Virus record (IMG/VR): IMGVR_UViG_2585427768_000003 | Span: 1 to 26,251 of that record | DNA: 26,251 nucleotides | Direction: 5' to 3' (one strand) | Source: a virus | Lineage: Duplodnaviria; Heunggongvirae; Uroviricota; Caudoviricetes | Shown here: piece by piece, positions 1,255-26,251 of the stretch | Layout: every line of letters starts with the position of its first letter | Position numbering within the stretch: the stretch's first letter is position 1 | Translations under genes and position numbers: made by a program | The notes under the pieces: generated by a model | Databases searched by the model: none | What the model saw: the letters and a program-made list of their open reading frames with translations, nothing else | Told to the model about the DNA's origin: nothing

Positions 1255-1258
1255 ATAA

Positions 1259-1446: not shown

Positions 1447-1458
1447 TAAATCAATAAG

Positions 1459-4043: not shown

Positions 4044-4137
4044 TTTGTTCTCCACGTATATGCGCTGCACCGCGCTGAATTCTGGTAAAAAGAATCCCTC
4101 ACCATCCGGCGATTATTGAGTAAATTACGTTTCCATA

Positions 4138-4159
4138 AATGCCCCCGCAGGGGCATTTG
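4138..4159 (-). other. 9-bp-stem hairpin AAATGCCCC-CGCA-GGGGCATTT between two early genes
   Basis: perfect 9-bp inverted repeat with 4-nt loop, 12 nt after the 4171 stop; no clear U-tract, so possibly an RNA stability or processing element rather than a terminator. Confidence 0.3.
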
Positions 4160-4170
4160 CAGTAATGAAA

Positions 4171-4995: not shown

Positions 4996-5060
4996 AATAA
5001 GTCCTCACTATATAAAGATATTCAGTGATGAGATAAATAATCGGTTAATTAAGAACGATA

Positions 5061-5423: not shown

Positions 5424-5471
5424 TTTTCTGCTCCTAATCATATCGACCCTGCAAGGTCGGTTGGTTTCTCC

Positions 5472-5560
5472 ACAAAACAGAGAAGAACACCTGCGGTGGC
5501 AGCCGCCCGGATGGATTGGGTTATGAGCCCGTCGTCCGGTGATGTTCTTCTCTGTTTTGT
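5472..5560. repeat. 18-bp perfect inverted repeat (ACAAAACAGAGAAGAACA / TGTTCTTCTCTGTTTTGT) with 53-nt GC-rich spacer
   Basis: arms 5472..5489 and 5543..5560 are exact reverse complements; sits in a ~440-bp noncoding interval upstream of the YfdP-like gene. Confidence 0.8.
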
Positions 5561-5861
5561 AAAAAGAGCGGTACCAGCCGGAAGCAAGTGTACAAACTGG
5601 TACCGCGAGGACTACACACAGCATAAAGTTGTGGTGCCGGGTGCCTCCCGGTGCCTGGCGAAAGTTGCACACCAGGCGGGTGGGTATCCACAGAAGGTCG
5701 ACTGTCAGCCTCAACCTTAACCCGCGTGCGCTGAGCCGCATTCACCACAACGCTAAGGATTCTCTCTGGTTGAAAATACTTAGCTGTTATGTGCCTGTCT
5801 TTTCACCACTTCAGGCTCGGTGGTATCTTGGTGTTTTCATATAGCCAAGAAGGAAATAGTT

Positions 5862-6053
5862 ATGACCAAAGAAGAAAAAATTCTTTATTTATTCCAACTA
5901 TCGGTTAAGACTCACACTGCATATCAGACTGCTGCCATGACATCAGATAAAAATTACAGTACGTCAGAAAACCCGATAGACGACATAAGCAAGCTTTACG
6001 ATAAGTTCGAAGCACTACTCGATAAAAAGTTTGCTGAGGCTGGGCTTGAGTGA
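5862..6053 (+). CDS. small hypothetical protein (63 aa), opposite orientation to the early-left operon
   Basis: ATG at 5862 preceded by AAGGAA; AT-richer than neighbours; 3' end overlaps the convergent ORF 6015..6221. Confidence 0.45.
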   Translation: MTKEEKILYLFQLSVKTHTAYQTAAMTSDKNYSTSENPIDDISKLYDKFEALLDKKFAEAGLE

Positions 6054-6221
6054 TTGTTGAATAATCGACAAAACCCAACTTAAATTTTCGTCAGTGGGCT
6101 CGATGCCATGTGCGGTGAGCTCACTTTTCAAAACTCCAAGCAATTCAGAGCTGATTTTCAATATATCTGCTTGATTTCTAACTATTCCCACTTTTTCCTC
6201 CCTTGGTCTACGCGCGGTCAT
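6015..6221 (-). CDS. small hypothetical protein (68 aa), first ORF downstream of the putative leftward early promoter
   Basis: ATG at 6221; basic N-terminus MTARRPREEK; weak Shine-Dalgarno; positional analogue of lambda N or rex, no family recognised. Confidence 0.35.
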   Translation of the reverse strand: MTARRPREEKVGIVRNQADILKISSELLGVLKSELTAHGIEPTDENLSWVLSIIQQSLKPSLSKLFIE

Positions 6222-6399
6222 GTTTTACGCCCAAACGACTTCACAGTTATTGTTTAAAATCTGGACTTTCATTTCATACACCTGCTTTAACATGAGTGCC
6301 TAGTGGCACAACATGACTCAACGAATCATCCTGGACTTCATATGCCCCAGGCGGCTACTTCGTGGGCGTCCTGCCTGTTCGTTATCTTTGATATAAAAT

Positions 6400-6464
6400 C
6401 TAACTTAACTTAGTTATTATGGCAAGAGAAAACACCAAACTTTTCTTAGTTCGGTGCCTTAGTT
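6400..6464. promoter_or_regulatory. OL-like operator cluster (CTTAGTT half-sites at 6409, 6445, 6458; dyad CTAAC-TTAA-CTTAG at 6400..6413)
   Basis: same 7-mer recurs in the cI-cro intergenic region; AT-rich interval immediately downstream of cI. Confidence 0.4.
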
Positions 6465-6478
6465 AGAGAAGAGAGGTC

Positions 6479-7105
6479 TTAGAGTTCGTATTGAACTCCT
6501 TTGACTACACCAATGATAAGGCAATTACCATTGATAGGGATGTTGGGATACCGAGGATTTAATGGCACTAAAAACTTTTGAGGGCCATCGATGACTAATT
6601 TTTTTACTGTAGCTTCGTTTGTTCCATCAAGTCGAGCGATGACTATTTTTCCATGACGAGGTTCTGCATCTGGATCTACAATCACTGTTGCGCCTTCTGG
6701 TATTGTTGGGAGGCCATTAGGGTTAGTCATGGAGTCACCTTTAACCTCTAATGCAAATGAGTTATCACCAATCTTTAATGATGTATCTACCCACTTGTCC
6801 ACTTCACTAAACACTTCTGCTGCCCTGCACTCAGTAAACTGCCCAGCCTGAACCCACGATATTACAGGAACTCTGCGCATGTTTGTGACGAGTTTGCCTT
6901 CAAACTCAGCACCATAAAGAATGTAATCTATTGACGTATTGAAGAACTTCGCTAATTTCGAAAGTGCCTCCCCACCAGGGGTATTGATGTCTTTCTCCCA
7001 GTACCCCACAGCAACGTCGCTTACTCCACAAAATTTACCCAATTCTTTCTGGGACGTTCCGGTAACTCTTCTCAGAGCTTTTATACGCTGACCAACCGTT
7101 TCCAT
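6479..7105 (-). CDS. CI-like prophage repressor (HTH_XRE N-terminus, S24 LexA-type peptidase C-terminus)
   Basis: 208 aa; N-terminal HTH (QKELGKFCGVSDVAVGYWEKD), C-terminal GDSM serine motif and downstream Lys; ATG at 7105 has no Shine-Dalgarno, compatible with a leaderless PRM-type transcript. Confidence 0.88.
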   Translation of the reverse strand: METVGQRIKALRRVTGTSQKELGKFCGVSDVAVGYWEKDINTPGGEALSKLAKFFNTSIDYILYGAEFEGKLVTNMRRVPVISWVQAGQFTECRAAEVFSEVDKWVDTSLKIGDNSFALEVKGDSMTNPNGLPTIPEGATVIVDPDAEPRHGKIVIARLDGTNEATVKKLVIDGPQKFLVPLNPRYPNIPINGNCLIIGVVKGVQYEL

Positions 7106-7127
7106 AGGAGCACCATTTCTTGAATTG

Positions 7128-7192
7128 CTAAGTAATCTTAGTTTTTATTGACCAAAGATAGATTTGTAATTAGCATCTAATAAAACTTAGTT
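7128..7192. promoter_or_regulatory. OR-like operators and putative PR promoter (-35 TTGACC 7148..7153, -10 TAGCAT 7171..7176)
   Basis: dyads CTAAG-TAAT-CTTAG (7128..7141), ATTAG-CAT-CTAAT (7169..7181), CTAAT-AAAA-CTTAG (7177..7190) in the 97-bp interval between divergent cI and cro. Confidence 0.5.
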
Positions 7193-7202
7193 TGGAGGGC
7201 GT

Positions 7203-7403
7203 ATGACAACTGACGATATCGAAAGCTACTTCGGCAGTATTGAGAAAGTTGCTGCTTTTTTCGGCATAACAACTGAAGCCGTTTATCAGTGGCGAAACCG
7301 TCCGGGCCAGTTAATTCCAAAAGGACGTGCAGCAGAAGCTGCATATAGAACTTGCGGACGGTTGCCATTTAAACCTGAGCTTTATGAAAAATCTAATGGA
7401 TAA
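7203..7403 (+). CDS. Cro-like small HTH regulator
   Basis: 66 aa, divergent from cI, ATG at 7203 preceded by GGAGGG; HTH-like segment IEKVAAFFGITTEAVYQWRNR. Confidence 0.75.
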   Translation: MTTDDIESYFGSIEKVAAFFGITTEAVYQWRNRPGQLIPKGRAAEAAYRTCGRLPFKPELYEKSNG

Positions 7404-7992
7404 ATCGATTAACAGAAACCACAGAACGATGAGGCTAACCGTGGGTAAGCATCACTGGAAAGTAGAAAAACAGCCTGAGTGGTACGTGAAAGCTGTCAGA
7501 AAAACTATCGCAGCGTTGCCGGGTGGTTACGCTGAAGCAGCTGACTGGCTGGATGTAACAGAAAACGCATTATTTAACCGTCTTCGTGCCGATGGCGATC
7601 AGATTTTCCCGCTGGGATGGGCAATGATTTTGCAACGTGCTGGTGGAACTCACTTCATTGCTGACGCTGTGGCGCAGTCTGCAAATGGCGTCTTTGTGTC
7701 TCTTCCTGACGTCGAGGATGTGGACAACGCCGATATTAACCAGCGCCTGCTGGAAGTCATTGAACAGATTGGCAGTTATTCCAGACAGATTCGTTCGGCA
7801 ATCGAAGACGGTGTGGTGGAACCGCATGAGAAGACAGCAATTAACGACGAGCTGTATCTCTCAATTTCGAAGCTGCAGGAGCATGCAGCACTGGTCTACA
7901 AAATCTTTTGCATTTCAGAAAGTAATGACGCCCGCGAGTGTGCAGCTCCGGGCGCCGTGGCGTGTCGTGACTGTGGAGAAACTAACGCATGA
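7384..7992 (+). CDS. CII-like / YdaT-family-like phage regulatory protein
   Basis: ORF downstream of cro in the CII position; start uncertain (ATG at 7384, 7396 or 7429, all weak Shine-Dalgarno; the track start 7327 overlaps cro and is rejected); family from recall only. Confidence 0.45.
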
Positions 7993-8327
7993 ACAGTTTA
8001 ACAACACACTACCGTCGCTCGCAACTGATTGCGCTTCCTGTACCGGGTGGAAAAGCGAAGGTGGAGTATTGCTATGCAGTTAATGTACCAGGTGACAGGG
8101 AAATTGTAACCCACAGCTTTGCTGAGTGGGCTGTGGGTGATTTCAACCGGCAGAAGGAGACAGTCCTTTGCGACAAGTTAACCGCTGGTTCAAAGATCAC
8201 TACGGAGTGCCCGTCAGAGTCATTCGTTGGGAGCCGGAAACACAACGAGTTATCTACCTCCGCGAAGGCTATGAGCATGAGTGCTTCAGCCCGCTCGAAC
8301 AGTTTCGTCGTAAATTCAGGGAAATAG
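7989..8327 (+). CDS. hypothetical protein, possibly frameshifted (alternative frame open 8141..8347)
   Basis: ATG at 7989 overlaps upstream stop (ATGA); C-terminal part in this frame is Ser/Ala-rich low complexity while the -1 frame from 8141 reads protein-like ([36 protein letters not shown]...). Confidence 0.4.
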
Positions 8328-8336
8328 AGGTCGGTC

Positions 8337-9278
8337 ATGAGCACTAAATTAACCGGCTATGTATGGGATGGTTGCGCTGCATCAGGCATGAAATTATCCA
8401 GCGTGGCAATTATGGCCCGCCTGGCTGATTTCAGTAATGACGAAGGTGTGTGCTGGCCATCAATTGAAACTATTGCCCGTCAGATTGGCGCGGGGATGAG
8501 TACCGTCAGGACGGCTATCGCACGGCTGGAAGCAGAAGGCTGGTTAACACGTAAGGCGCGTCGCCAGGGTAACCGCAATGCGTCGAATGTTTATCAGCTT
8601 AACGTTGCGAAGCTTCAGGCAGCGGCATTTTCTCAACTGTCAGATTCTGACCCGTCAAAATCTGACGCATCAAAATCTGACCCGTCAAAATTTGATGCGT
8701 CGAAATCTGGCAAAAAAGCGGGTTTTCACCCGTCAGAATCTGGCGGGGATCCGTCAGTAAAATCAAAACATGATCCGTCAGATAAAAAACCTTCTCGTCC
8801 GGACGCTTCGCAACCGGACACGCAGACGGATGAACAGGATTTTTTAACTCGCCATCCTGATGCGGTTGTATTCAGCCCTAAAAAGCGCCAGTGGGGAACG
8901 CAGGATGATTTGACCTGCGCACAGTGGCTCTGGAAAAAAATCATCGCCCTGTACGAGCAAGCCGCCGAATGTGACGGCGAGGTGGTTCGTCCCAAAGAAC
9001 CGAACTGGACAGCCTGGGCAAACGAAATTCGCCTGATGTGTGTGCAGGATGGTCGTACTCACAAACAAATCTGCGAGATGTACAGCCGCGTCAGCCGCGA
9101 TCCGTTCTGGTGCCGTAACGTGCTCAGCCCGTCGAAGTTGCGGGAAAAATGGGATGAGCTTTCCCTGCGCTTATCACCGTCCGTCAGCACGTACACCGAA
9201 AAACGCGAAGACCCGTACTTCAAAGCCAGTTACGACAACGTGGACTACAGCCAGATCCCGGCAGGATTCAGGGGGTGA
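8337..9278 (+). CDS. phage replication initiation protein (N-terminal HTH, C-terminal DnaT-like domain)
   Basis: 313 aa; ATG at 8337 with AGAGG upstream; N-terminus typical of replication-initiator HTH proteins; C-terminus ends ...DYSQIPAGFRG, resembling the DnaT C-terminal ...SQIPPGFRG; central linker encoded by an iteron array. Confidence 0.75.
   Translation: MSTKLTGYVWDGCAASGMKLSSVAIMARLADFSNDEGVCWPSIETIARQIGAGMSTVRTAIARLEAEGWLTRKARRQGNRNASNVYQLNVAKLQAAAFSQLSDSDPSKSDASKSDPSKFDASKSGKKAGFHPSESGGDPSVKSKHDPSDKKPSRPDASQPDTQTDEQDFLTRHPDAVVFSPKKRQWGTQDDLTCAQWLWKKIIALYEQAAECDGEVVRPKEPNWTAWANEIRLMCVQDGRTHKQICEMYSRVSRDPFWCRNVLSPSKLREKWDELSLRLSPSVSTYTEKREDPYFKASYDNVDYSQIPAGFRG
8639..8744 (+). repeat. 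iteron array (putative origin) inside the replication gene: 13-bp GTCARAATCTGAC-like repeats
   Basis: five copies at exact 15-bp phasing starting 8639, 8654, 8669, 8684, 8699 and a sixth at 8732; first copy GTCAGATTCTGAC is palindromic; degenerate copies to ~8780 followed by A-rich tract. Confidence 0.7.
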
Positions 9279-9280
9279 TC

Positions 9281-9769
9281 ATGAGTCTTTTGAATGACGT
9301 TCAGAAATTCATTGAAGCCCATCCGGGGTGTACTTCCGGAGACATTGCAGATGCTTTTGCTGGTTACTCACGGCAGCGCGTTCTGCAGTCAGCAAGCAAG
9401 TTACGTCAGAGTGGGCGTGTGGCTCACCGTTGTGAAGGGGATACACGCAGACATTTCCCGCGCCTGACTGAGAGAGCGCAGGAGCCGGAACCACAACCAG
9501 TTCGTGAAACCAGACCTGTGCGCAATTTCTATGTCGGCACTAACGACCCCCGGGTGATTTTGTGCCTGACCCGCCAGGCTGAAGAACTGGAGTCCAGGGG
9601 CTTATTCCGTCGAGCTGCAACGGTGTGGATGGAGGCATTCCGTGAAAGCCACTCCCAGCCAGAACGAAACAATTTTCTGGCGCATCGTGAGCGGTGCTTA
9701 CGGAAAAGCAGCAAGCGCGCTGCATCGGGTGAAGAGTGGTATCTGTCAGGGAATTACGTGGGGGCTTAA
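9281..9769 (+). CDS. hypothetical protein with putative winged-helix N-terminus
   Basis: 162 aa from ATG at 9281 (track start 9275 is GTG); upstream stop overlaps; weak resemblance to wHTH regulators, function not established. Confidence 0.55.
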   Translation: MSLLNDVQKFIEAHPGCTSGDIADAFAGYSRQRVLQSASKLRQSGRVAHRCEGDTRRHFPRLTERAQEPEPQPVRETRPVRNFYVGTNDPRVILCLTRQAEELESRGLFRRAATVWMEAFRESHSQPERNNFLAHRERCLRKSSKRAASGEEWYLSGNYVGA

Positions 9770-10422
9770 TGAGTAATAAATATTGCCAGGCGCTGGTGGA
9801 GCTGCGAAACAAACCAGCCCATGAACTGAAGGAAGTGGGCGATCAGTGGCGCACGCCGGACAACATTTTCTGGGGAATTAACACCCTGTTTGGCCCGTTT
9901 GTTCTGGATCTGTTCACTGATGGTGATAACGCCAAATGTGCCGCTTATTACACTGCGGAAGACAACGCGCTGGCGCATGACTGGTCTGAACGTCTTGCGG
10001 AGCTTAAAGGTGCTGCCTTTGGTAATCCCCCGTACAGCCGCGCCAGTCAGCATGAGGGGCAATACATCACCGGCATGCGTTACATCATGAAACATGCCAG
10101 TGCTATGCGTGATAAAGGCGGGCGCTATGTTTTCCTGATCAAAGCTGCCACCAGCGAAGTTTGGTGGCCGGAAGATGCAGACCATATTGCTTTTATTCGC
10201 GGGCGTATTGGTTTTGAACTGCCAGCCTGGTTTATCCCGAAGGATGAGAAGCAGGTTCCGACAGGAGCTTTCTTCGCTGGTGCTATTGCTGTTTTCGACA
10301 AGACCTGGAAGGGACCGGCAATCAGCTACATCGGGCGCGATGAACTTGAGGCATGTGGTGAGGCCTTTCTGGCGCAGGTTCGCCAGCAGGCAGAAAAACT
10401 GGTCAGGGAGATGGTGGCATGA
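9769..10422 (+). CDS. phage DNA N6-adenine methyltransferase (Dam-like, orphan)
   Basis: 217 aa from ATG at 9769 (TAATG overlap with upstream stop); catalytic NPPY motif in AAFGNPPYS; no adjacent restriction endonuclease gene. Confidence 0.85.
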   Translation: MSNKYCQALVELRNKPAHELKEVGDQWRTPDNIFWGINTLFGPFVLDLFTDGDNAKCAAYYTAEDNALAHDWSERLAELKGAAFGNPPYSRASQHEGQYITGMRYIMKHASAMRDKGGRYVFLIKAATSEVWWPEDADHIAFIRGRIGFELPAWFIPKDEKQVPTGAFFAGAIAVFDKTWKGPAISYIGRDELEACGEAFLAQVRQQAEKLVREMVA

Positions 10423-10868
10423 CGACGTTAACTCAATGCCAGCAGCAGGTGCTGGATATGCTGATTTCTTATCAGAAAGAACGTGGCTTCCCGCCAACCA
10501 ATCAGGAGGTGGCAACCATGCTGGGATATCAGACCGGACGCCTGGCACGTTCGATTGGTTACATGGTACCCAGAGCCAGTAAACATCGCCCTGGTTTTAT
10601 GGCACGTATAGCCCCTAACCAGCGTAATGGAGAGGGAAACCGCCGTATCACCGGTGATTTTTATCCGGCTTTTTTGTTCTATGGCGTGAGGCGAGGGGCA
10701 AAGCGTCGTCGCAGCCATCATCGTGGTGCATCCGGTGGCAGCGGCTGGCGACTGGCTCCACGTAATAACTTCATGGTGGAAACGCTTGAAAAGAACCGCA
10801 GCTGGACACGCTATTTTCTGGCGCGGGAATTGCGTAAATCACTGAAGCCGGAGCGACGACGCAGATGA
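10419..10868 (+). CDS. protein with LexA-like N-terminal DNA-binding domain and highly basic C-terminal half; possible chimeric junction ORF
   Basis: N-terminus MTTLTQCQQQVLDMLISYQKERGFPPTNQEVATMLGYQ resembles the LexA N-terminal wHTH; C-terminal half Arg/Gly-rich with no recognisable fold; ATGA overlaps at both ends. Confidence 0.5.
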   Translation: MTTLTQCQQQVLDMLISYQKERGFPPTNQEVATMLGYQTGRLARSIGYMVPRASKHRPGFMARIAPNQRNGEGNRRITGDFYPAFLFYGVRRGAKRRRSHHRGASGGSGWRLAPRNNFMVETLEKNRSWTRYFLARELRKSLKPERRRR

Positions 10869-16366: not shown

Positions 16367-17695
16367 ATGACGTGGAAAGACAGGCTTCAGGATGCGTCAT
16401 TTCGAGGTGTGCCGTTTAAGGTTGAAGAAGAAAGTGCGGGAACCGGTCGCCGTGTGGAAACACATGAATACCCGAACCGCGACAAGCCCTATACCGAAGA
16501 TCTGGGAAAAGTCACTTTCCGCCCGTCCATCACAGCTTATGTGGTGGGAGATGACTGCTTTGACCAGCGCGATCGCCTGATTGAAGCGCTGAATAAACCC
16601 GGTCCCGGCAAGCTTGTCCACCCGACATATGGTGAGCTGAAAGTCTGTGTTGACGGGGAAGTTCGGGTCAGCACATCGAAAAGTGAAGGGCGTATTGTCC
16701 GCTTTGACCTGAAGTTTGTCGAAGCAGGAGAACTCTCTTACCCCACATCAGGTGCGGCGACGGCGCAGACGCTGATGTCATCCTGTTCTGCACTGGATGA
16801 CTGCATCAGTGACAGTTTCAGTGGTTTCAGTATCGATGGCGTGGCGGATTTTGTGCAGAACGACGTCGTCGGTAATGCCAGCACAATGCTTGGGTATGTT
16901 TCTGATGCGATGAAAGTGGTGGATTCTGCCGTATCGGATGCCGCCAGACTGTTGCAGGGGGATATCTCGGTACTTCTGCCGCCGCCATCGTCAGGCAAAA
17001 ATTTCGTTGAGCAGGTGCAGAAAATGTGGCGTACCGGGAAGCGCCTTTATGGTAACGCCAGCGACCTGGTCACCATGATCAAAACGCTTTCCGGTGTCAG
17101 CCTCGGCAGCGATCTGCAACCGCGCGGCGTCTGGAAAACGGACAGTAAAACCACCGCCACGGCTACGCAGCAGCGTAACGTGGTTGCCAGCACCCTTCGT
17201 ACGACCGCAATCAGCGAAGCGGCGTATGCCGTCACCCGATTGCCTGCGCCAACAACTTCCGCGGTGATGCAGAATGCCGCAGTGGGGCAGGCAACAACAC
17301 CTGCGCAGAGCACTGGCTGGCCTTCCGTCACGCATCCGGCACTGAACAATGCACCGGCGGTGAAAAACACAGTTGACCTGCCGACGTGGGAAGAACTGAC
17401 TGACATTCGCGACACACTGAATACGGCAATTGATAAGGAGTTGTCCCGTACAACCAGTGATGCGCTGTTTCTGGCGCTGCGCCGGGTGAAAGCAGATCTG
17501 AATGCGGATATCAACACGCGCCTTGAACAGTCTGCACGGATCATTCAGCGCACGCCGGATGAGGTTTTACCCGCGCTGGTGCTGGCGGCGACCTGGTTTG
17601 ATAACGCGGCGCGTGACGCGGACATTATCCGGCGTAATGCCATTACGCATCCCGGCTTTGTGCCGGTGATCCCTCTGAAGGTGCCAGTGCAATGA
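16367..17695 (+). CDS. DNA circularisation protein (Mu N-like) of the tail/baseplate module
   Basis: about 443 aa; ATG at 16367 preceded by GGAG at 5-nt spacing (track start 16361 is GTG); N-terminus WKDRLQDASFRGVPFKVEEE typical of Mu N family. Confidence 0.8.
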   Translation: MTWKDRLQDASFRGVPFKVEEESAGTGRRVETHEYPNRDKPYTEDLGKVTFRPSITAYVVGDDCFDQRDRLIEALNKPGPGKLVHPTYGELKVCVDGEVRVSTSKSEGRIVRFDLKFVEAGELSYPTSGAATAQTLMSSCSALDDCISDSFSGFSIDGVADFVQNDVVGNASTMLGYVSDAMKVVDSAVSDAARLLQGDISVLLPPPSSGKNFVEQVQKMWRTGKRLYGNASDLVTMIKTLSGVSLGSDLQPRGVWKTDSKTTATATQQRNVVASTLRTTAISEAAYAVTRLPAPTTSAVMQNAAVGQATTPAQSTGWPSVTHPALNNAPAVKNTVDLPTWEELTDIRDTLNTAIDKELSRTTSDALFLALRRVKADLNADINTRLEQSARIIQRTPDEVLPALVLAATWFDNAARDADIIRRNAITHPGFVPVIPLKVPVQ

Positions 17696-18771
17696 ACGAT
17701 AACGTCACGCTACGGGTAAATGGCCGGGAGTGGAATGGCTGGACATCGGTGCGCATCGGTGCCGGTGTTGAACGACTGGCGCGGGATTTCAGTGTGGAGA
17801 TCCCCCGCCAGTGGCCGGGAGATGATGGTATCACCACGCTTCAGCCGCGCATTAAAAATGGTTCAAAAGTGGAAGTGCTGATTGGTGATGAGCTGGTGAT
17901 CACCGGCTGGGTGGAGGCGACCCCCGTTCGTTACGATGCCCGTTCGGTCAGCACCGGTATTGCCGGACGTAGTCTGACCGCTGACCTGATTGACTGTGCA
18001 GCCGAACCGACACAGTTTAACGGACGATCGCTGGTACAGATTGCGCAGGCGCTTGCTGCGCCTTTCGGCATTGAGGTGGTGAACAGCGATGCGCCGTCGG
18101 GTGTTATTCCGGATGTCCAGCCTGATCACGGTGAAACGGTGATCGAGGTGATCAACAAAATACTCGGTCAGCAGCAGGCGCTGGCTTATGACGACCCGCA
18201 CGGCAGGCTGGTGATTGGTGGTATTGGCTCAACGCGGGCACATACCGCGCTGGTACTTGGGGAAAACATCCTTTCCTGTGATACGGAGAAGAGTATCCGG
18301 GAGCGGTTTTCAGTTTACCAGGTGGCGGGGCAGCGTGCCGGAAACGACGATGATTTCGGTGAGGCCACCACCACCGCGCTGCGGGCCCGCACAGAGGATG
18401 CATTTATTGCCCGTTACCGTCCGATGTATATCAGGCAGACAGGGCAGGCTACGGGGGCAGGCTGTATTGCGCGTGCTGACTTTGAAGCCCGACAACGGGC
18501 GGCGCGGACGGATGAAACCACCTATGTGGTGCAGGGCTGGCGACAGGGTAACGGTACGCTGTGGCAGCCCAACCAGCGGGTGATTGTCTTCGATCCGGTC
18601 TGTGGTTTCGACAATACCGAACTGCTTGTCTCGGAAGTCACGTTTACTCAGGACCAGAATGGCACCCTGACGGAAATCCGTGTCGGCCCGCCTGATGCTT
18701 ATCTGCCTGAACCCGAAGATCCCGGCGCGCGGAAAAAGAAAAAAGCCAGAGTACAGGAGGACCCGTTCTGA
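17692..18771 (+). CDS. baseplate hub protein (Mu P / P2 gpD-like)
   Basis: 359 aa; ATGA overlap with upstream gene; position and sequence flavour of gpD-type hub proteins. Confidence 0.8.
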   Translation: MNDNVTLRVNGREWNGWTSVRIGAGVERLARDFSVEIPRQWPGDDGITTLQPRIKNGSKVEVLIGDELVITGWVEATPVRYDARSVSTGIAGRSLTADLIDCAAEPTQFNGRSLVQIAQALAAPFGIEVVNSDAPSGVIPDVQPDHGETVIEVINKILGQQQALAYDDPHGRLVIGGIGSTRAHTALVLGENILSCDTEKSIRERFSVYQVAGQRAGNDDDFGEATTTALRARTEDAFIARYRPMYIRQTGQATGAGCIARADFEARQRAARTDETTYVVQGWRQGNGTLWQPNQRVIVFDPVCGFDNTELLVSEVTFTQDQNGTLTEIRVGPPDAYLPEPEDPGARKKKKARVQEDPF

Positions 18772-19319
18772 TGAGGACGATTGAAGCAATGCAGCGACAA
18801 CTTCTCGGCCTGATTGGGCGGGCAGTGGTGAAAAGCATCAGTGCCGCCACGAAATGTCAGACCGTGGATGTGTCCCTGATTGCCGGTGAACCCAAAGCCG
18901 GGGTTGAACATCTTGAACCCTACGGTTTTACCGCAAGGGCAAACAGCGGTGCGGAAGCGGTGGTGTTGTTTCCGGATGGCGACCGTTCTCACGCGGTGGT
19001 TGTTACGGTGTCGGACCGTCGCTACCGCCTGAAAGGGCTGCAGACGGGTGAGGTGGCTGTCTATGACGATCAGGGGCAGTCCGTGACGCTGACCCGGGAG
19101 GGGATCGTGGTGGACGGTGCAGGTAAAACGATCACGTTTCGCAATTCACCTAAAGCACGTTTTGAAATGGACCTTGAAGTGACCGGACAGGTGAAAGACC
19201 TGTGCGACTCCGGCGGTACCACCATGTCAGCGATGCAGCTTGCCTATAACGGGCATCGTCACAGAGAGAACGGTCAGGGCAGTAACACCGACAAACCTGA
19301 TAAAGCGATGGAGGCATGA
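18771..19319 (+). CDS. baseplate assembly / spike protein (gpV-like, Mu gp45-like)
   Basis: 182 aa; TGATG overlap; follows the hub gene as in Mu and P2 baseplate clusters. Confidence 0.75.
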   Translation: MRTIEAMQRQLLGLIGRAVVKSISAATKCQTVDVSLIAGEPKAGVEHLEPYGFTARANSGAEAVVLFPDGDRSHAVVVTVSDRRYRLKGLQTGEVAVYDDQGQSVTLTREGIVVDGAGKTITFRNSPKARFEMDLEVTGQVKDLCDSGGTTMSAMQLAYNGHRHRENGQGSNTDKPDKAMEA

Positions 19320-19744
19320 TGGAACTGTGGCTGACGGTGAACGGTAAACGCACCTGCGCCAGCGCACAGCTGGATCCGCTGACCCGCGCCGTGGTGATTT
19401 CCCTGTTTACCTGGCGGCGGGCGGAGCCTGATGACAACGCCGACGTCCCGATGGGATGGTGGGGGGATACCTGGCCTGCGGTACAGAATGACCGTTACGG
19501 CTCCCGACTGTGGCTGCTTCAGCGCAGCAAACTGACCAATCAGCTGGTGCAGACGGTAAGGGGGTATATCCGCGAATGCCTGCAATGGATGATTGATGAC
19601 GGCGTGGTGTCCCGTATTGATCTGGATATCCGCCGCACCGGGATTAATGAACTGGGTAACAGTATCACTCTCTGGCGTCGTGACGGACCGGTAATGATTT
19701 CTTTTGATGATCTGTGGAGTGCGATAACGCATGGCGGACAGTGA
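19316..19744 (+). CDS. baseplate protein (Mu gp46 / gpW-like)
   Basis: 142 aa; overlaps neighbours at both ends; order conserved with Mu gp46. Confidence 0.7.
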   Translation: MMELWLTVNGKRTCASAQLDPLTRAVVISLFTWRRAEPDDNADVPMGWWGDTWPAVQNDRYGSRLWLLQRSKLTNQLVQTVRGYIRECLQWMIDDGVVSRIDLDIRRTGINELGNSITLWRRDGPVMISFDDLWSAITHGGQ

Positions 19745-20790
19745 ATTTCAGCGCCCGACGCTGGCAGAAAATATCAGTATGCTCCGTAACGATTTATTCG
19801 CCAGGCTGGACGTCAGCAACACGCTCCGGCGCATGGATGAAGACGTGCGGGCAAAGGTGTATGCGGCGGCGCTGCATACGGTTTACGGGTACATCGATTA
19901 TCTGGCAATGAACATGCTGCCTGACCTGTGCGATGAGTCCTGGCTGGCGCGACATGCTGCGATGAAACGGTGTCCGCGCAAGGGGGCCACGGCTGCCAGC
20001 GGGTATATGCGCTGGGAAGGTGTCAGCGATGGCCTGAAGGTGACCGCCGGGAGTGTTATTCAGCGCGATGACCTGGTGCAGTACACGGCAACTGCCGATG
20101 CAACCAGCTCCGGTGGTGTCCTGCGCGTGCCGATCGCCTGCTCAAGTGCAGGCGCGGTCGGTAACGCTGACGACGGTACGTCATTAATCCTGGTCACGCC
20201 GGTGAATGGTCTGCCGTCTTCCGGCGTGGCAGATACACTGACAGGTGGATTTGATACTGAAGAGCTGGAAACGTGGCGCGCCCGCGTCATTGAGCGGTAT
20301 TACTGGACGCCTCAGGGCGGGGCTGACGGGGACTATGTCGTCTGGGCTAAAGAAGTGCCCGGCATTACCCGCGCATGGACATACCGACACTGGATGGGAA
20401 CGGGGACTGTCGGTGTGATGATTGCCAGCAGTGACCTGATTAATCCCATTCCGGAAGAATCAACGGAAATGGCGGCAAGACAACATATCGGGCCACTGGC
20501 CCCGGTGGCAGGCTCTGATTTGTATGTGTTCAGGCCGGTGGCGCATACGGTGGATTTTCATATCCGTGTGACGATCGGATACACCAGAAATACGGGCTGC
20601 CATCACCGCCGAGTTGCGTTCGTTCCTGCTGCGTGATGGTTATCCGCAGGGAGAACTGAAGGTGTCGCGTATCAGTGAAGCGATTTCCGGTGCGAACGGG
20701 GAATACAGCCATCAGTTGCTTGCACCGGCAGACAATATCTCCATTGCAAAAAATGAACTGGCGGTACTGGGGACGATTTCATGGACGTGA
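19731..20790 (+). pseudogene. baseplate J-like protein (Mu gp47-like), interrupted by a +1 frame change near 20572..20585
   Basis: frame 0 ORF 19731..20636 ends in a basic tail unlike the rest (…RNTGCHHRRVAFVPAA); the +1 frame opens at 20572 and reads a protein-like C-terminus (TPEIRAAITAELRSFLLRDGYPQGELKVSRISEAISGANGEY...) ending in a stop that overlaps the next gene start (ATGGACGTGA). Confidence 0.6.
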
Positions 20791-21365
20791 CAAACGATGA
20801 TTACATCCGTCTGTTGTCGGCACTGTTGCCCCCCGGTCCGGCGTGGTCAGCCAGCGATCCGGCGATTGCCGGTGCGGCACCGTCATTAACCCGCGTTCAT
20901 CAGCGTGCGGATGCCCTGATGCGGGAGCTGGATCCGCGCACCACCACTGAACTGATAAACCGCTGGGAGCGTCTGTGCGGCCTGCCGGATGAATGTATTC
21001 CTACAGGGACACAGACCCTTCGCCAGCGTCAGCAACGGCTGGATGCGAAGATTAATCTGGCGGGCGGCATTAATGAGGATTTTTACCTTGCACAGCTTGC
21101 TGCCCTGGGCAGACCAGACGCCACCATCACGCGATACGATAAAAGCACGTTCACCTGCTCATCTGCCTGTACTGACGCGGTGAATGCGCCGGAATGGCGG
21201 TATTACTGGCAGGTCAACATGCCAGCCGCCACCAACACCACCTGGATGACATGTGGCGATCCCTGTGATTCCGCACTGCGTATCTGGGGCGACACCGTTG
21301 TCGAGTGTGTGCTTAACAAACTCTGCCCTTCGCATACCTACGTAATTTTTAAATATCCGGAGTAA
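20781..21365 (+). CDS. tail protein (Mu gp48 / YmfQ-like, DUF2313-type)
   Basis: 194 aa; located between baseplate J-like and tail fiber genes; family from recall. Confidence 0.7.
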
Positions 21366-21368
21366 TCC

Positions 21369-22469
21369 ATGCATCGTATAGACACGAAAACCGCGCAGAA
21401 GGATAAGTTCGGCGCGGGTAAGAACGGTTTTACCCGTGGTAACCCCCAGACCGGCACGCCTGCCACCGATCTGGATGATGACTACTTTGACATGTTGCAG
21501 GAAGAACTCTGCAGCGTGGTGGAGGCATCCGGTGCCAGCCTGGAGAAGGGGCGGCACGATCAGCTTCTTACCGCGCTTCGTGCGCTGCTGTTAAGCCGCA
21601 AGAATCCGTTTGGCGATATCAAATCGGATGGCACTGTGCAAACGGCTCTCGAAAACCTGGGAATGACAGACATTCTGAATGATAAACAGGATAAAAATGA
21701 TAATCTGACATCATTGTCGAGCTTAACAGGAATACCGGATGGGCTGGCATTTTTTACAGGTGCTGGAACAATGGATATGACAGCGCTGACTCAAAATGGT
21801 AGGGAAATTTTAAGTAAAAAAAACGTATCGGAAACTCTACAATATTTAACACTTGGTGATGGAACAGGAAGGCTTTTGGGGGTTCAGGTATTTGGATCAT
21901 CTGGGACTTATCACAAATCACCTGGTGTAACGAAAATTATAGTGGAAGCCGTTGGCGGTGGTGGTGCCAGTGGCAATTTATCAGCAACAGCCTCAAATAA
22001 CTGTGGTGTAAGTGCTGCCGGTTCCAACGGGGCATATGCTAAAGCATTTTTTTATCAGTCTATACCTGAATCCGTGCAAGTAACTATTGGAAGCGGTGGT
22101 GTAGCAGGAACAGGACCAGGAGGCTCTGGAGGTGACGGCGGGAATACAAGCTTTGGTGATTTGCTTGTATGCCCGGGAGGAAGGGGATCAACTCAAGTTC
22201 AGCAGGTACCTCCATTTTCAGGGGGAAGTGCAACAGAAGCACCAATTCCTACAGGGCAAGGGATTCTGTTCCATTCAGTTTCACGATCAAATTTATGTGG
22301 GGCACTTGGACTTGGTGATGATCAGGCGATTGGCGTTGAAAGTATAACCACTACTATGCTTGGGACATACGGTATTGGCGGGGCAGGGAAATACAATAAG
22401 GCGTCATCAGGCCCAGCGACAGGAAATAATGGAAATCAGGGATATATTCTTGTGTGGGAGTATCAGTAA
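21369..22469 (+). CDS. tail fiber protein with conserved N-terminal anchor and AT-rich glycine-rich C-terminal receptor-binding region
   Basis: 366 aa; N-terminus [17 protein letters not shown]...[19 protein letters not shown] typical of tail fiber anchors; composition shifts to AT-rich near 21660; C-terminal Gly-rich motifs ([25 protein letters not shown]). Confidence 0.8.
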
Positions 22470-22648
22470 TGAGCGATATTTATGCAGTCGTACAAAATGG
22501 TGTCGTTACAAATCTTGTTGTATGGGATGGTAAGTCAGAGTTTAAGCCAGAAAAAGCGGATATAGTTAAATGTGTTGGAGATGTTGGTATTGGCTGGTCA
22601 TATGACGGTAAAAAATTCATCAAGCCTGAAGATAAAACCGCGCAATAG
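22469..22648 (+). CDS. small protein downstream of tail fiber (possible fiber chaperone/accessory), 59 aa
   Basis: ATG at 22469 overlaps the fiber stop (TAATG), GGGAG 8 nt upstream; track start 22454 is GTG; AT-rich like the fiber C-terminus. Confidence 0.55.
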   Translation: MSDIYAVVQNGVVTNLVVWDGKSEFKPEKADIVKCVGDVGIGWSYDGKKFIKPEDKTAQ

Positions 22649-22664
22649 CGCGGTTTTATTTATT
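22634..22664. terminator. bidirectional Rho-independent terminator between convergent genes
   Basis: stem AACCGCGC/GCGCGGTT with AATA loop, A-tract 5' and T-tract 3'; both convergent stop codons (22646..22648 and 22660..22662) lie inside the element. Confidence 0.7.
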
Positions 22665-23679
22665 TTACTGCTAAAATTCGTTTTCTTAGCATCAGCTCTA
22701 AAGGCTCCTCAACTAATTTATAAAGTATGATTGAGACTATGGTTATTATAACAAGGAGCGCTATTAAATAGAGTGGTCCGGGGTTATGTCCAAAGATTTT
22801 AAAGCAAAATAATATAATGGGTTGATGAATTAAATAAAAAATAAATGATGATTTCCCTAATAGCTCTAGGGTTTTTGAACTGAGGATAGTATGAATGACT
22901 CCATTTCTTAGATAGATGCATGAAGTAAAGAATATTACCATGGGGAGTAAATAATATAACGAATAACGTAGACTATTATTTATGTTGTTGCTATAATATA
23001 TAGCTATTAGCAGAGGTAATAGTGAAATTAAAAACAAAAGGCTGTCGACTGTCTGCTGTCGGCTGTTTTTCCAGCAAGCGTAAATAATCATGCCGCAAAT
23101 AAATTCTACCAAGCGGCTTACTGGGAATATATAATATAACCAGTGATTAAGTTCTTCTGTTTGTATAATTTTTAAAAAATATATAGTTAATAGTAGAGTT
23201 ATAATTGATATTGCAGTGATTACTTTCTTTGTAATTGATGTATAAATCAACGGAATAAACATTAAATAAAAAAACAGCTCATCAGACAAAGACCATGATA
23301 CACCATTTAATGAGAAGTAGTAATCCTCCTTTGGTATCCAACTTTGCATTAATAAAATATTTGTTAAGGTTTTTGAAAAATCAAAGTTCTTTAAGTGAAT
23401 GGTTAGTAAAATAAATGGCATGGCTAATAATAGATGCATTGGAACAATTCTTGCCAATCTTAAAAGAATAAACTGTCTTTTACTTGTTACTTCATTTTTT
23501 AGCTTGTCTTCATATGAATATGAAAGAATGAAGCCAGATAAAATAAAGAAAAAGGAAACGCCAATAAATCCCTGGGAAAACATTTCTTTTACAAAAACAC
23601 CAAAATAGTCTGTATTTAAATGGCATAAATAAACCATTAATGCAGCTATAAATCTGAGTCCTGTTAAGTGGCGAAGCAT
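22660..23679 (-). CDS. membrane acyltransferase family 3 (O-antigen acetyltransferase Oac/OafA-like), likely serotype-conversion gene
   Basis: 339 aa from ATG at 23679 (AAGAGG Shine-Dalgarno; track start 23709 also possible); multiple predicted TM helices; N-terminal RHLTGLRFIAALMVYLCH motif typical of acyltransferase-3; very AT-rich. Confidence 0.8.
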   Translation of the reverse strand: MLRHLTGLRFIAALMVYLCHLNTDYFGVFVKEMFSQGFIGVSFFFILSGFILSYSYEDKLKNEVTSKRQFILLRLARIVPMHLLLAMPFILLTIHLKNFDFSKTLTNILLMQSWIPKEDYYFSLNGVSWSLSDELFFYLMFIPLIYTSITKKVITAISIITLLLTIYFLKIIQTEELNHWLYYIFPVSRLVEFICGMIIYACWKNSRQQTVDSLLFLISLLPLLIAIYYSNNINNSLRYSLYYLLPMVIFFTSCIYLRNGVIHTILSSKTLELLGKSSFIFYLIHQPIILFCFKIFGHNPGPLYLIALLVIITIVSIILYKLVEEPLELMLRKRILAVK

Positions 23680-23982
23680 CAATAACCTCTTGTTATGAAG
23701 ATAAAGCAATTCAAAAGAGGCATTTTATGACTGTAGGGGATTGGTGTCTATATGAATGAGTAATCTGGTTTTTAAAATCTTCTTTAATTACAAAATAAAC
23801 CTTTCTTAGGCTATAGATTTGTGGCTGTAACACTGTGTGTCCACGACATTGAGACATCCTTCCGCTTTGCTATAGATGTGGAATTCAGGATCAAGCGATA
23901 TCGGACTCATCCTCAGCACCACCCGGTTAATCTGGATAACGGGAGAAGGGAAGCGCTGCCAGAAGATGATGATGGTTACAGT

Positions 23983-24010
23983 TCTGCACTGGCTATTCTG
24001 CACTGGCTAT
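23983..24010. repeat. perfect tandem duplication of 14 bp (TCTGCACTGGCTAT x2)
   Basis: two identical adjacent units 23983..23996 and 23997..24010 in the noncoding cargo region. Confidence 0.8.
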
Positions 24011-24414
24011 ATTCGTGGTGATCACTTACATAATTAATGACGCCAGGAATACGGAGTTTGATGATTGCCTGGTGATGTGAGAAAAAACTCATACACACAA
24101 AGCTTTGCACTGGATTGCAAGGCTTTGTGCTATTCGATAGCACGAGTTTGAATGAAAATCAGCCGTTATCGATTTTACGTATTTTTGTATGAGAGGATTT
24201 TTACCTCCTCCCACCGATCCTCCATAACTTTACGACACTGTCTCTAGGACTGCTATGTGCCAAGAGCGGAATTTTCTAATATTATGCTGCATTCGTTTAA
24301 GGGGAGCAGATCAGCTAACGACTCCTACGTCCTGGGGAAAGGTCACATATGCTAAACAGCAGCTCAGCAAAGAGAAGAGCGAATTTGGTAACGGGAAACC
24401 GTTATGATATGAAT

Positions 24415-24442
24415 AAGGCTCCCAATGGGAGCCTTATTTTTT
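24415..24442 (+). terminator. Rho-independent terminator (9-bp stem AAGGCTCCC / GGGAGCCTT, 3-nt loop, ATTTTTT)
   Basis: perfect hairpin followed by T6 on the plus strand; lies 18 nt beyond the stop of the minus-strand 57-aa gene, so may act bidirectionally. Confidence 0.65.
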
Positions 24443-24459
24443 GATAGGGATGATGAATA

Positions 24460-24633
24460 TTATCCGAGGCTTACTGGCTTTACACCTTTCTTCGGCCCGA
24501 CCATATCCATGTCTTTTTCCTTCTGACCAACTTTGGCAAGTTTGTTGCCGTCGATGGAAGCCCAGAAGTCGAGAGAGCGTCTTGCACTAGCCATAGCTTT
24601 ATCAGAAGTGATTTTTTTATGTTGTTTGATCAT
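24460..24633 (-). CDS. small Lys-rich hypothetical protein (57 aa)
   Basis: ATG at 24633 preceded by AGAGG at 6-nt spacing; below the ORF-track size cutoff; sequence MIKQHKKITSDKAMASARRSLDFWASIDGNKLAKVGQKEKDMDMVGPKKGVKPVSLG. Confidence 0.5.
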   Translation of the reverse strand: MIKQHKKITSDKAMASARRSLDFWASIDGNKLAKVGQKEKDMDMVGPKKGVKPVSLG

Positions 24634-24723
24634 GGTTAACCTCTTTGGCTATAGACTTTACGGATAATTTTATAACAAATGCGTTCATTAAACAAACAGC
24701 CCATCGACTGCTGATTGAGATTG

Positions 24724-25296
24724 TCATTCTTCAACTGGGTCAATGCCATTCACTTTCCGTCGTATGGTGTCGAGGATGTCGTGCACATCTGCAGACATCT
24801 TACTGTGGTCATGCCATACTTGGGCAAATCCGTAGCTCCTGTAACGCGGTTGTGCATCTTCAGTAGGATCTTGAATATAAACGTCGTCAAGCTCCGCGAT
24901 CTGGCAGAAGGTAGTCGCGTAAATAAGTGCGATGATCAACACATTGCCTGTTAGGTCGGTATCCTCATCTGAAATGAAGTTTTCTAACATGCAAATTGAG
25001 AATTGCTCACGGCGCCAGTCGTATTTACAAATGATAACCGCATGAAGCTGTTCGGGCTCATCACGGTCGATCAGCTTTAACGTTATATCCAGTATTCCAT
25101 CTACAGCGTCACCGCGATAGGTCTGCATCGCCCATCGCCAGTCCAAGTGGCTTTGTAAACTTGCATCTTCAAGCTGGCGTCTCTCTTCATCGCTCAAAAC
25201 GCCTACAGAGATATTAGTCCATCCAAGTGATTCAATAGCTTTTTGTGTTGTTGCTAGACATTGATCATGTATTTGCTGAGTAGATAGGAAGCTCAC
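24724..25296 (-). CDS. hypothetical acidic protein (190 aa), unknown function
   Basis: GTG start at 25296 with AAGGA upstream; protein-like composition; only a weak GNAT-like C-terminal Y-x-x-Y-G-F, no canonical acetyl-CoA motif. Confidence 0.5.
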   Translation of the reverse strand: MSFLSTQQIHDQCLATTQKAIESLGWTNISVGVLSDEERRQLEDASLQSHLDWRWAMQTYRGDAVDGILDITLKLIDRDEPEQLHAVIICKYDWRREQFSICMLENFISDEDTDLTGNVLIIALIYATTFCQIAELDDVYIQDPTEDAQPRYRSYGFAQVWHDHSKMSADVHDILDTIRRKVNGIDPVEE

Positions 25297-25668
25297 TTCA
25301 TGTCATCCTTTATCTTTTGTCCCACAGCAATTATATCGTTCAAGTGTGAAAGTAGGCGAGTTATTCTGACCTACGCCTCTCGCTATACGTGGTTTTAGAG
25401 GGCTGACATGACTGTTCCCAGCTGATTGCCACACGGCATTGTTCGCAAGATTTATGTCGACTCAATTATGAACGTCTGCTGATCGCTCATAACAGGCATT
25501 CACTACATTTATCTTCATTGGCTATGCAAGTCGTAATACAAGTTGGGACAAAACTGAGACACATAAGGCCTCACAATGGCTTGCAAGGCTTTACATGTTT
25601 TGATGTGATGGGACGTGTGAGCGCAGTGTTGATGGGGTAATGCTTTGAATTAGAAACGGATTCTTATA

Positions 25669-25716
25669 ATTCGTAATGCGAAGGTCGTAGGTTCGACTCC
25701 TATTATCGGCACCATT
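25669..25716. repeat. attR: partial copy of thrW 3' end (anticodon loop to acceptor 3' end)
   Basis: 48 bp identical to 1399..1446; lacks the tRNA 5' half, so not a functional tRNA. Confidence 0.85.
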
Positions 25717-25840
25717 AAAATCAAAGAGTTACCCCATATTTAAATACACCACGTTTCCTCCTGTGCCGTATTTGTGCCATTGTAACCTTGGCAATTCATC
25801 AAAATACTGTTCTGACATCAGGCAGTGCAGGTGCAGACAT

Positions 25841-26251
25841 TTAAGCCAATTGCTGCCGCCATTCTTTGACGTAGTCAATCAGGGCGCGGAGCTTTGGTGC
25901 AATATTGCGACGCTGTGGGAAATACAGATAGAAGCCCGGAAATTGTGGAAGAAAGTCATCAAGCAGCGATACAAGCTTACCGCTTTCAATATATGGCCTG
26001 AAAGTTTCCTGAGTGGCAATTGTTATTCCTCCGCCGGCAAGAGCCAGCCTCAACATCAGACGCAGATCATTAGTCGTAATCTGCGGTTCAATCGCAAGGT
26101 CGAAAGTTCTCCCGTTTTCTTCAAATGGCCAGCGATAAGGCGCACCCTCCGGGGACTGACGCCAGCCGATACACTTATGGGTATTTCCCCCGGAGGCGAG
26201 AAAGCGCTCTCCACGCCCGGCCGCAAGGATCAGGACGACGGGGGCAGGCAT
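25841..26251 (-). CDS. LysR-family transcriptional regulator, C-terminal part only (gene continues beyond window end)
   Basis: C-terminus ...KLVSLLDDFLPQFPGFYLYFPQRRNIAPKLRALIDYV typical of LysR substrate-binding domains; the Met at 26251 is a window-edge artefact. Confidence 0.6.
   Translation of the reverse strand: MPAPVVLILAAGRGERFLASGGNTHKCIGWRQSPEGAPYRWPFEENGRTFDLAIEPQITTNDLRLMLRLALAGGGITIATQETFRPYIESGKLVSLLDDFLPQFPGFYLYFPQRRNIAPKLRALIDYVKEWRQQLA

Follow-up and report, generated by a model that had tools for sequence, protein, structure and literature searches.

The 26,251-nucleotide (nt) virus record IMGVR_UViG_2585427768_000003 (the window) is a segment of the Escherichia coli chromosome that carries a prophage integrated at thrW. 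Near the right end of this prophage are a gene encoding a 366-amino-acid (aa) tail fibre, an open reading frame (ORF) encoding a 59-aa protein, both on the + strand, and a convergent gene on the - strand encoding a PF01757 acyltransferase, as described in the first-pass annotation. We propose that exchangeable modules are stacked at the right end of this SfV-like myovirus prophage, flanked by two conserved recombination joints: a linker within the fibre gene on the left, and a hairpin element of ~60 base pairs (bp) next to att on the right. The first module (about 21680-22627) would re-target the virion, by supplying a fibre tip of the Pam3 gp24 type whose variable polyglycine-domain loops contact the receptor, together with the translationally coupled 59-aa protein, which we predict to be a fibre-binding beta-sandwich without the helical trimerisation domain. 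The second module (22628-24083) would be a self-contained moron that has a promoter-like site, a Shine-Dalgarno sequence and a bidirectional terminator of its own and encodes an AT3-only acyltransferase, which most likely O-acetylates the lipopolysaccharide (LPS) O-antigen of the lysogen; this would alter a surface epitope and hinder adsorption of phages that use that glycan, a form of superinfection exclusion. We assign a probability of about 0.65 to this explanation as a whole. The block belongs to the horizontally exchanged host-range and lysogenic-conversion type known from converting phages of Shigella and Salmonella, and is in that sense an ordinary kind of phage module.

Evidence for exchange comes from complete E. 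coli genomes, where the stretch between 21594-21679 and 24131-24140 is found again, 98-100% identical, in no fewer than three further prophage contexts and chromosomal sites. Strain KSC1031 has it on the same SfV-like backbone as the window, at thrW; CP52E and LHM10-1 have it on an SfV-like backbone (93-100% identical per 100 nt) at a site adjoining bioA/ybhB; E41 and TW10590 have it on a different myovirus, with baseplate J and DUF2612 genes, next to a thrW-type att remnant followed by another integrase and at argW/intS, respectively; and 300709 has it in a remnant without baseplate genes near pinE/pphA (pphA/yebW). The acyltransferase is identical or nearly so across all these sites, and in CP52E, where the baseplate is of the Mu-like gp44-48 type, both the small gene and the acyltransferase gene are 100% identical to those of the window. 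On the left, the tail region of the window is 96-97% identical at the nt level to SfI, SfII, SfIV and SfV up to nt 21658, and identity to the "short tail fiber" genes of these phages stops at 21658-21661. Crossovers to three other fibre N-termini map to 21594, 21647 and 21679 (blastn against E41, 300709, AW1.7 and TW10590), all of them inside a linker with the motif NPFGDIKxDG...ALENLG. This linker includes a 65-nt match to side-tail-fibre genes that are otherwise unrelated, and the motif also precedes the receptor-binding modules of other members of the fibre family. The proposal in the first-pass annotation that the fibre C-terminus had been swapped in is therefore well founded, since SfV-type identity ends within the gene and the same C-terminus is joined to three different N-termini.

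On the right, the match to the block ends at 24131-24140 in CP52E, 300709 and TW10590, and continues through the hairpin element to 25720 in E41. Seven aligned copies of the element come from five different genomic contexts, with flanks that differ on both sides. Of 5426 complete E. coli genomes, 1820 have the element, in every case with genes for receptor binding or O-antigen modification/conversion on one side and att/int on the other, in P22-like, HK97-like, SfV-like and CPS-53 prophages. In K-12 CPS-53 its distance upstream of gtrA (yfdG) is 77 bp, and in Sf101 it is 75 bp upstream of oacB; it is also upstream of gtrA in three sister prophages of the SfV-like group (L026-L028), separates the tail fibre or tailspike from attP/int in HK542 and JEP4, and adjoins int in an SfX fragment. 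An Rfam scan of 21000-26251 gave only sub-threshold matches, all of them from terminator hairpins (Leu_leader, RsmY, RmaA), and thus no known RNA family. The element may be a terminator of leftward (int-side) transcription, a promoter region for conversion genes, or both. That the exchange joints can be defined to the base is a new point of this analysis.

The first-pass annotation regarded the AT-rich block as a single acquired cassette. The joint travel that this implies is seen at 98-100% identity on several backbones, and also in Citrobacter prophages with yet another baseplate type, where a Gly_rich_2 fibre gene, a 61-aa gene and a convergent acyltransferase gene occur together (83% identity for the enzyme and 61% for the small protein), which indicates, from sequence comparison, that the linkage is older than the recent spread in E. 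coli. The cassette is not indivisible. The point at which loci with and without the acyltransferase part is 22627, directly after ...AAATTCATCAAGCCT and within codon ~53 of the small gene, and AAGCCT are the last common letters in the alignment; the left joint of the acyltransferase module is hence 22627/22628, and the module brings with it the last codons of the small gene and the shared terminator. The fibre gene itself has a further, hypervariable sub-module, the distal half of the glycine-rich domain (about 22000-22470), where nt identity between the window and CP52E is only 62-78%, with 96-100% in the flanks on both sides; from 22500 to 24131 the two sequences are 99-100% identical per 100 nt. 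The block therefore consists of two separable modules that are often co-inherited.

What the imported fibre tip might do is suggested by its fold. Residues 1 to ~110 of the fibre are matched by PHROG tail-fibre families, and residues 180-358 match PF21722 (Gly_rich_2) with 32.8 bits against a gathering cut-off of 24.3; an NCBIfam scan returned nothing for the fibre. Across 28 aligned fibre relatives (Escherichia, Citrobacter, Salmonella and Yersinia), variable segments are interspersed with invariant glycine motifs, and the N-termini are mutually unrelated. The modelled tip is predicted to combine a TNF-like sandwich with a polyglycine lattice. Its best fold-comparison score is with the Pam3 tail fibre gp24 (7ypx_A; 16.5, at 26% identity over 192 residues), followed by Mycobacteriophage Bxb1 gp33 (16.0), the Bxb1 tail spike gp29 (10.2) and the glycine-rich domains of ALK receptors (8.6-8.9), with all others below 5. 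The Pam3 unit that pairs a TNF-like with a glycine-rich part has been proposed to be the receptor-binding end of that fibre (PMC9608196), and in Klebsiella phages a gp24-like fibre recognises LPS, with host-range mutations that map to its glycine-rich domain (PMC12671077). The adhesin-like character that the first-pass annotation saw in the glycine-rich motifs is consistent with these comparisons, which make the motifs part of what appears to be a genuine receptor-binding fold. The gp38 adhesins of Salmonella phage S16 and T2-type phages likewise have glycine-rich motifs alternating with variable receptor-contacting loops, in a polyglycine sandwich, and the Pam3 glycine-rich fold has been related to that of gp38 (PMC9608196). 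By analogy, we predict that the distal variable loops of the fibre are its receptor contact sites. The window differs from the Pam3 gp24/gp25 system (PDB 7YPX; PMC9608196) in that its fibre N-terminus is an SfV-type baseplate adaptor, its likeness to Pam3 is detectable at the fold level only, and its phage is temperate with an enterobacterial host. The probable membership of the tip in the Pam3 gp24 fold class is another of the new points. As a side observation, the NCBI pipeline misreads this intact ORF: the first 99 codons are annotated as a truncated "stfP pseudogene, missing C-terminus", and the remainder is left unannotated or called a separate 268-aa "glycine-rich domain-containing protein" (L001, 8670-8966; L005, from strain CP52E, 5670-6770).

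The second module carries the acyltransferase gene, whose product matches PF01757 with 106.3 bits (cut-off 31; E = 2e-30; residues 15-330 of a 349-aa ORF) and phrog_3333, an O-acetyltransferase family, with E = 7.5e-51. We rejected the TTG start at 23709, which gives the 349-aa form, in favour of the ATG at 23679, which has the Shine-Dalgarno sequence AAGAGG 6 nt ahead of it and gives a 339-aa form whose exact sequence (WP_000943925.1, identical in window-type, CP52E, E41 and TW10590 loci) is on 499 contigs of a large collection. The AT3 motifs are intact (R9-X10-H20, F44-F-I-L-S-G49 and R74-L-A-R77), as compared with the published definitions of R/K-X10-H in helix 1, an FFXISG-type motif in helix 2, and RXXR (PMC7448272). 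A crude hydropathy scan finds about 9-10 hydrophobic segments, PF01757 is the sole Pfam family, and there is no SGNH domain. NCBIfam (no equivalog) and PADLOC scans returned nothing for the enzyme, it has no sequence relative in the PDB, and tblastn against Sf6 did not detect it. Its next relative is the Citrobacter enzyme at 83% identity, with all others at 45% or less; that it represents an uncharacterised AT3 clade is also a new point. One relative, at 41%, sits in a polysaccharide biosynthesis cluster. The closest phage-borne homologue is the annotated O-acetyltransferase of TL-2011b, of the phiV10/TL-2011b group (35% identity over 86% of the length), which is encoded directly after a putative tailspike, although that phage is of another type, the gene is in the same rather than the convergent orientation, and identity is low. 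LPS O-acetylation is reported to prevent phiV10 infection (PMC11854483). The ratio of nonsynonymous to synonymous substitution rates (dN/dS) is 0.14 for the acyltransferase gene and 0.29 for the small gene, and both proteins are under purifying selection. The features of a moron are present: a predicted promoter (a consensus match only) and a terminator, a GC content of 0.30 against 0.58, and absence of the gene from AW1.7 and O111:H2 12A, which share the adjacent module. All copies of the acyltransferase module have, between promoter region and hairpin element, a frameshifted peptidase remnant that is perhaps left over from the donor context.

Serotype-converting phages and prophages include SfV, SfX, SfI and SfII (gtrABC), Sf6 (oac), Sf101 (oacB) and K-12 CPS-53 (yfdGHI). 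SfV, SfI and SfII share the backbone of the window and have att at thrW. More generally, the window resembles the converting phages in having a glycan-modifying gene, read leftwards, between a receptor-binding gene and att, with the ~60-bp element upstream; it differs from them in that its cargo, an AT3 enzyme, has only 26% identity to OacB, and in that a 370-bp stretch with the peptidase remnant parts the enzyme from the element. The sister SfV-like prophages, which share backbone, fibre type and joints with the window, have the order Gly_rich_2 fibre, Tfa, convergent gtrC-gtrB-gtrA, element and int, so that gtrC-gtrB-gtrA occupy the same slot in the same orientation as the acyltransferase gene, and gene order likewise places a glycan-modifying gene between the receptor-binding gene and att/int in Sf101 and CPS-53. 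The window thus fits by position the serotype-converting logic that the first-pass annotation had invoked. Given this gtrABC/oacB slot and orientation, the enzyme most likely O-acetylates the LPS O-antigen; the best argument for this acceptor is positional, by analogy with the gtr and oac genes.

Several observations weigh against our reading. The window prophage is a head-less and lysis-less deletion derivative. We rejected full collinearity with the KSC1031 prophage: the two are otherwise 99.9% identical, and ~14.4 kb are missing from the window at a junction at 10524-10528 (window 1-10528 corresponds to 4248540-4259067 of the KSC1031 record and window 10524 onward to the sequence from 4273435, with a 5-nt overlap). 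In KSC1031 this segment encodes late regulation, holins, endolysin, terminase, portal, protease, capsid and head-tail proteins. Having lost the lysis, terminase and head genes, the window prophage cannot produce virions by itself, its fibre cannot serve a complete virion here, and it is likely that only the acyltransferase matters to the present host. The fibre, a trimeric protein, was modelled as a monomer, with low confidence over the first 70 residues. Profile searches of PDB sequences with the 59-aa family and the fibre family linked neither to the Pam3 chains, and returned only artefacts (designed "Cake" repeat proteins, and RNase H at E > 0.3), so the link to Pam3 is drawn from fold comparison. 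The acyltransferase has no NCBIfam equivalog and low identity to OacB, and AT3 enzymes also modify enterobacterial common antigen, capsules, peptidoglycan and other glycans (PMC9558356). The same fibre tip occurs in hosts of different O-serogroups (O111 and O128ac, with a variant tip in O128), which argues against a single O-antigen as the receptor of the tip; the serogroup of CP52E, O128:H12, is the only host serogroup that a literature search yielded (PMC10060365). Lastly, AW1.7 (O128ac:H12) and O111:H2 12A share the fibre tip and have a small gene of 68 aa but lack the acyltransferase gene, and CP52E keeps the acyltransferase gene with a different distal fibre tip. An obligatory pairing of receptor and immunity is, then, not supported.

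These last observations also count in favour of an alternative in which the pairing is positional only. The acyltransferase gene would then be one of many interchangeable cargo genes in a moron slot between the fibre genes and att, and its product would modify a glycan unrelated to the fibre receptor (enterobacterial common antigen, LPS core, capsule, colanic acid or another) or serve the host. The range of AT3 acceptors, the low identity to characterised O-antigen acetylases (OacB, and the TL-2011b enzyme), the occurrence of the fibre and small-gene module with other cargo or none in the slot, the replaced tip next to an unchanged acyltransferase in CP52E, and the sharing of one tip between serogroups are all as it would predict. 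Four points argue for a functional connection instead: the trio is kept as a unit in Citrobacter; GC content at third codon positions (GC3) is identical (0.28-0.29) in all three genes; in all characterised relatives that we examined, known O-antigen-modifying genes occupy the slot; and Pam3-like fibres bind LPS where this has been tested (PMC12671077). We consider the purely positional alternative unlikely, albeit the most serious of those that we weighed, and prefer the reading in which a re-targeting tip and an O-antigen-modifying moron are exchangeable parts of one stack.

The first-pass annotation remarked that the 59-aa protein is far shorter than canonical tail-fibre assembly proteins. 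The length is right, and the protein is less of an oddity than the remark implied, because it appears to be the lone fibre-binding domain of such a protein. Its start codon overlaps the fibre stop codon (TAATG), with a GGGAG Shine-Dalgarno sequence 8 nt upstream, and the same order, directly downstream of the presumed client fibre gene, is found in ten further loci, two of the sister prophages among them. Its only family is phrog_14370, of unknown function; Pfam gave no significant match (one was sub-threshold), NCBIfam and PADLOC scans gave none, and tblastn against 50,697 phage records found nothing. A word-indexed protein search recovered only 11 near-identical relatives, and the wider family surfaced only with an exhaustive HMMER search, in which 362 representative clusters (50% identity) match at E <= 1e-3. 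Among the best 150 of these, whose representatives are mutually less than 50% identical, 90 are of 80 aa or fewer and 33 are of 120-145 aa. In the 127-137-aa forms that we tested, the 59-aa domain is N-terminal and is followed by PF02413 (Caudo_TAP), the family of tail-fibre assembly proteins; the remainder is DUF4376 in four of five forms of 146-210 aa (those of 175-198 aa). Both 61-aa and 134-aa forms occur directly after Gly_rich_2 fibres, on SfV-like and other backbones. The window protein stops 6 residues past the N-terminal domain, where four relatives (P0259, P0260, P0262 and P0263) carry the Caudo_TAP region; it has no PF02413 match, and since it lacks this defining feature we do not file it in the Caudo_TAP family. 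It differs in this from the class of lambda Tfa, Mu U and P2 G (TfaMu, PDB 5YVQ), being one third of the usual length.

The predicted structure of the 59-aa protein is all-beta, with a mean predicted local distance difference test score (pLDDT) of 87.5, and the model has the form of an N-terminal fibre-binding beta-sandwich domain. In the models, the fibre tip and the 59-aa protein independently match the two partners of one solved complex, gp24/gp25. Residues 1-55 of Pam3 gp25 grip the junction where the TNF-like part of the fibre meets the glycine-rich part and residues 64-162 trimerise (PMC9608196); the window protein differs in lacking the whole of this C-terminal helical domain. We suggest that the 59-aa protein most likely binds the corresponding junction of each fibre subunit during folding, as a one-domain fibre chaperone or adaptor that works like the client-binding half of a Tfa. 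It would be a minimal relative of the tail-fibre assembly proteins from a large unannotated family, which is a further new point. An alternative is that the ORF is a functionless, decayed stump of a two-domain assembly gene whose 3' half was removed when the acyltransferase module inserted. The 3' end of the small gene does contain the left joint of that module, related fibres have two-domain forms (127-137 aa) next to them, and the trimerising domain is held to be the conserved part of tail-fibre chaperones (PMC9608196). Nonetheless, loci that are free of the acyltransferase gene likewise have a short form (68 aa), most of the best-matching cluster representatives are short, the 61-aa form follows Gly_rich_2 fibres on unrelated backbones, the dN/dS is 0.29, the translational signals are good, and the fold is predicted with confidence. 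A decayed stump is thus quite improbable, and we retain the interpretation as a one-domain chaperone or adaptor.

The change in base composition coincides with the left joint. The first-pass annotation placed a drop inside the fibre gene near 21660, with AT-rich sequence continuing through the small gene and the acyltransferase gene, and a windowed analysis of GC content and codon usage agrees with it. Total GC in 300-nt windows is 0.52-0.62 over 17000-21650, 0.39 over 21650-21950, about 0.50 over 21950-22400, 0.26-0.34 over 22550-23750, and 0.42-0.45 from there to the prophage end. The rebound to 0.50 inside the fibre gene is due to the GGN codons for glycine: in the glycine-rich domain GC at codon positions 1 and 2 is 0.57, and GC3 is uniform. 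For the same reason we rejected a single change point in total GC at 22422 as misleading, and used GC3 in its place. The maximum-likelihood GC3 change point in the fibre ORF is after codon 103 (nt 21677), within 20 nt of 21660, where GC3 falls from 0.64 to 0.28 (Fisher p = 4.8e-10); composition is therefore not uniform across this gene. GC3 is 0.62-0.67 in the baseplate genes and fibre N-terminus, 0.28 in both the fibre shaft/stalk and the acyltransferase gene, and 0.29 in both the glycine-rich domain and the 59-aa gene. An explanation of the drop by chance or by amino-acid content, instead of by horizontal acquisition, as the recovery of total GC in the glycine-rich domain and the unevenness of the window backbone (0.42-0.59 GC per kb) might suggest, is already refuted by the GC3 analysis and breakpoint mapping, since the shift sits in synonymous third positions, is uniform across three genes on two strands, and coincides with the mapped recombination breakpoints.

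Tail-fibre tips and O-antigen-modifying genes decide the host range of phages and the resistance of lysogens to phages, and this locus shows, with breakpoints at bp resolution, both traits moving together between unrelated E. coli prophages by way of two short conserved joints. This is of use for predicting host range from prophage sequences and for fibre engineering. The analysis also gives a testable function, as one-domain fibre chaperones, to a widespread family of very small proteins of 55-80 aa, currently annotated as "hypothetical" or as PHROG "unknown", and draws attention to an uncharacterised acyltransferase that is present on hundreds of E. coli contigs, including those of enterotoxigenic strains, and that may alter serotyping or vaccine epitopes. 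A bolder combination, which we put forward tentatively and regard as somewhat doubtful, is that the 55-80-aa proteins are an unrecognised class of minimal tail-fibre chaperones with the client-binding beta-sandwich only, and that tip and acyltransferase are a matched receptor/immunity pair hopping as a unit between unrelated myovirus backbones. If so, fibres with glycine-rich domains would be able to do without the trimerising helical domain, which is considered the conserved core of Tfa proteins, and a recipient phage would gain in one event a new host range and protection of its lysogens against phages with the same tip.

Table 1. Positions of the features discussed, numbered from the first nucleotide of the window.
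Feature	Position	Strand	Remarks
thrW	1369-1444		tRNA-Thr gene; integration site
Chimeric tail fibre gene	21369..22469	+	366 aa; one unbroken ORF
Fibre N-terminus, aa 1-75	21369..21593	+	native to the SfV-like backbone; presumed baseplate attachment; GC3 0.67
Conserved linker (left recombination joint)	21594..21679	+	from blastn breakpoints
Imported fibre C-terminus	21680..22466	+	predicted short helical stalk, then TNF-like beta-sandwich and polyglycine receptor-binding domain; GC3 0.28-0.29
59-aa single-domain tail-fibre chaperone candidate	22469..22648	+	directly 3' of the fibre gene
Bidirectional intrinsic terminator	22630..22661	.	common to the convergent 59-aa and acyltransferase genes; 14-bp stem then T-run; fold z-scores -5.2, -3.6
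AT3-only membrane acyltransferase gene	22660..23679	-	339 aa; lysogenic-conversion moron; GC 0.30; convergent to the 59-aa gene
Sigma-70-like promoter candidate	23722..23750	-	TAGACA-17-TAAAAT; consensus scan, 10/12 matches
S24/LexA-type peptidase gene remnant	23869..24080	+	frameshifted, C-terminal; NCBI annotation of the identical sequence in KSC1031, E41, CP52E, TW10590 and 300709
Conserved ~60-bp hairpin element (right recombination joint)	24078..24140	.	fold z-scores -3.9, -4.4
Second cargo block	24141..25546	-	separate origin; bracketed by two element copies; GC3 0.45-0.47
57-aa ORF	24460-24633	-	function unknown; in the second cargo block
190-aa ORF	24724-25296	-	phrog_4350, function unknown; in the second cargo block
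Degenerate second element copy	25547..25592	.	83-84% identity to the HK542 and AW1.7 copies; att-proximal as in HK542, just before attR
attR	25669..25716	+	48-bp exact repeat of the thrW 3' end (1399-1446; exact repeat search); marks the prophage end

From left to right, the window contains proA, thrW, the integrase gene, early genes, a contractile-tail and Mu-like baseplate module (gp44-48 homologues), the block described above, and a LysR-gene fragment that adjoins paoD. The attR region is 92% identical to attP of HK542. Between 24141 and att at 25669 other genes form a milder low-GC zone (GC3 0.45-0.47), which is therefore a compositionally separate block. This second cargo accompanies the cassette in E41 and KSC1031 only. 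Its 57-aa and 190-aa products have no Pfam, NCBIfam or PADLOC match, and a strong hairpin terminator is at 24408-24442. In E41 (L002, 10127-11501), similarity to the window extends across the thrW-type att core, and directly beyond it come another integrase gene and P4-like genes (antirepressor, Icd-like), an arrangement suggestive of elements in tandem at a single att site.

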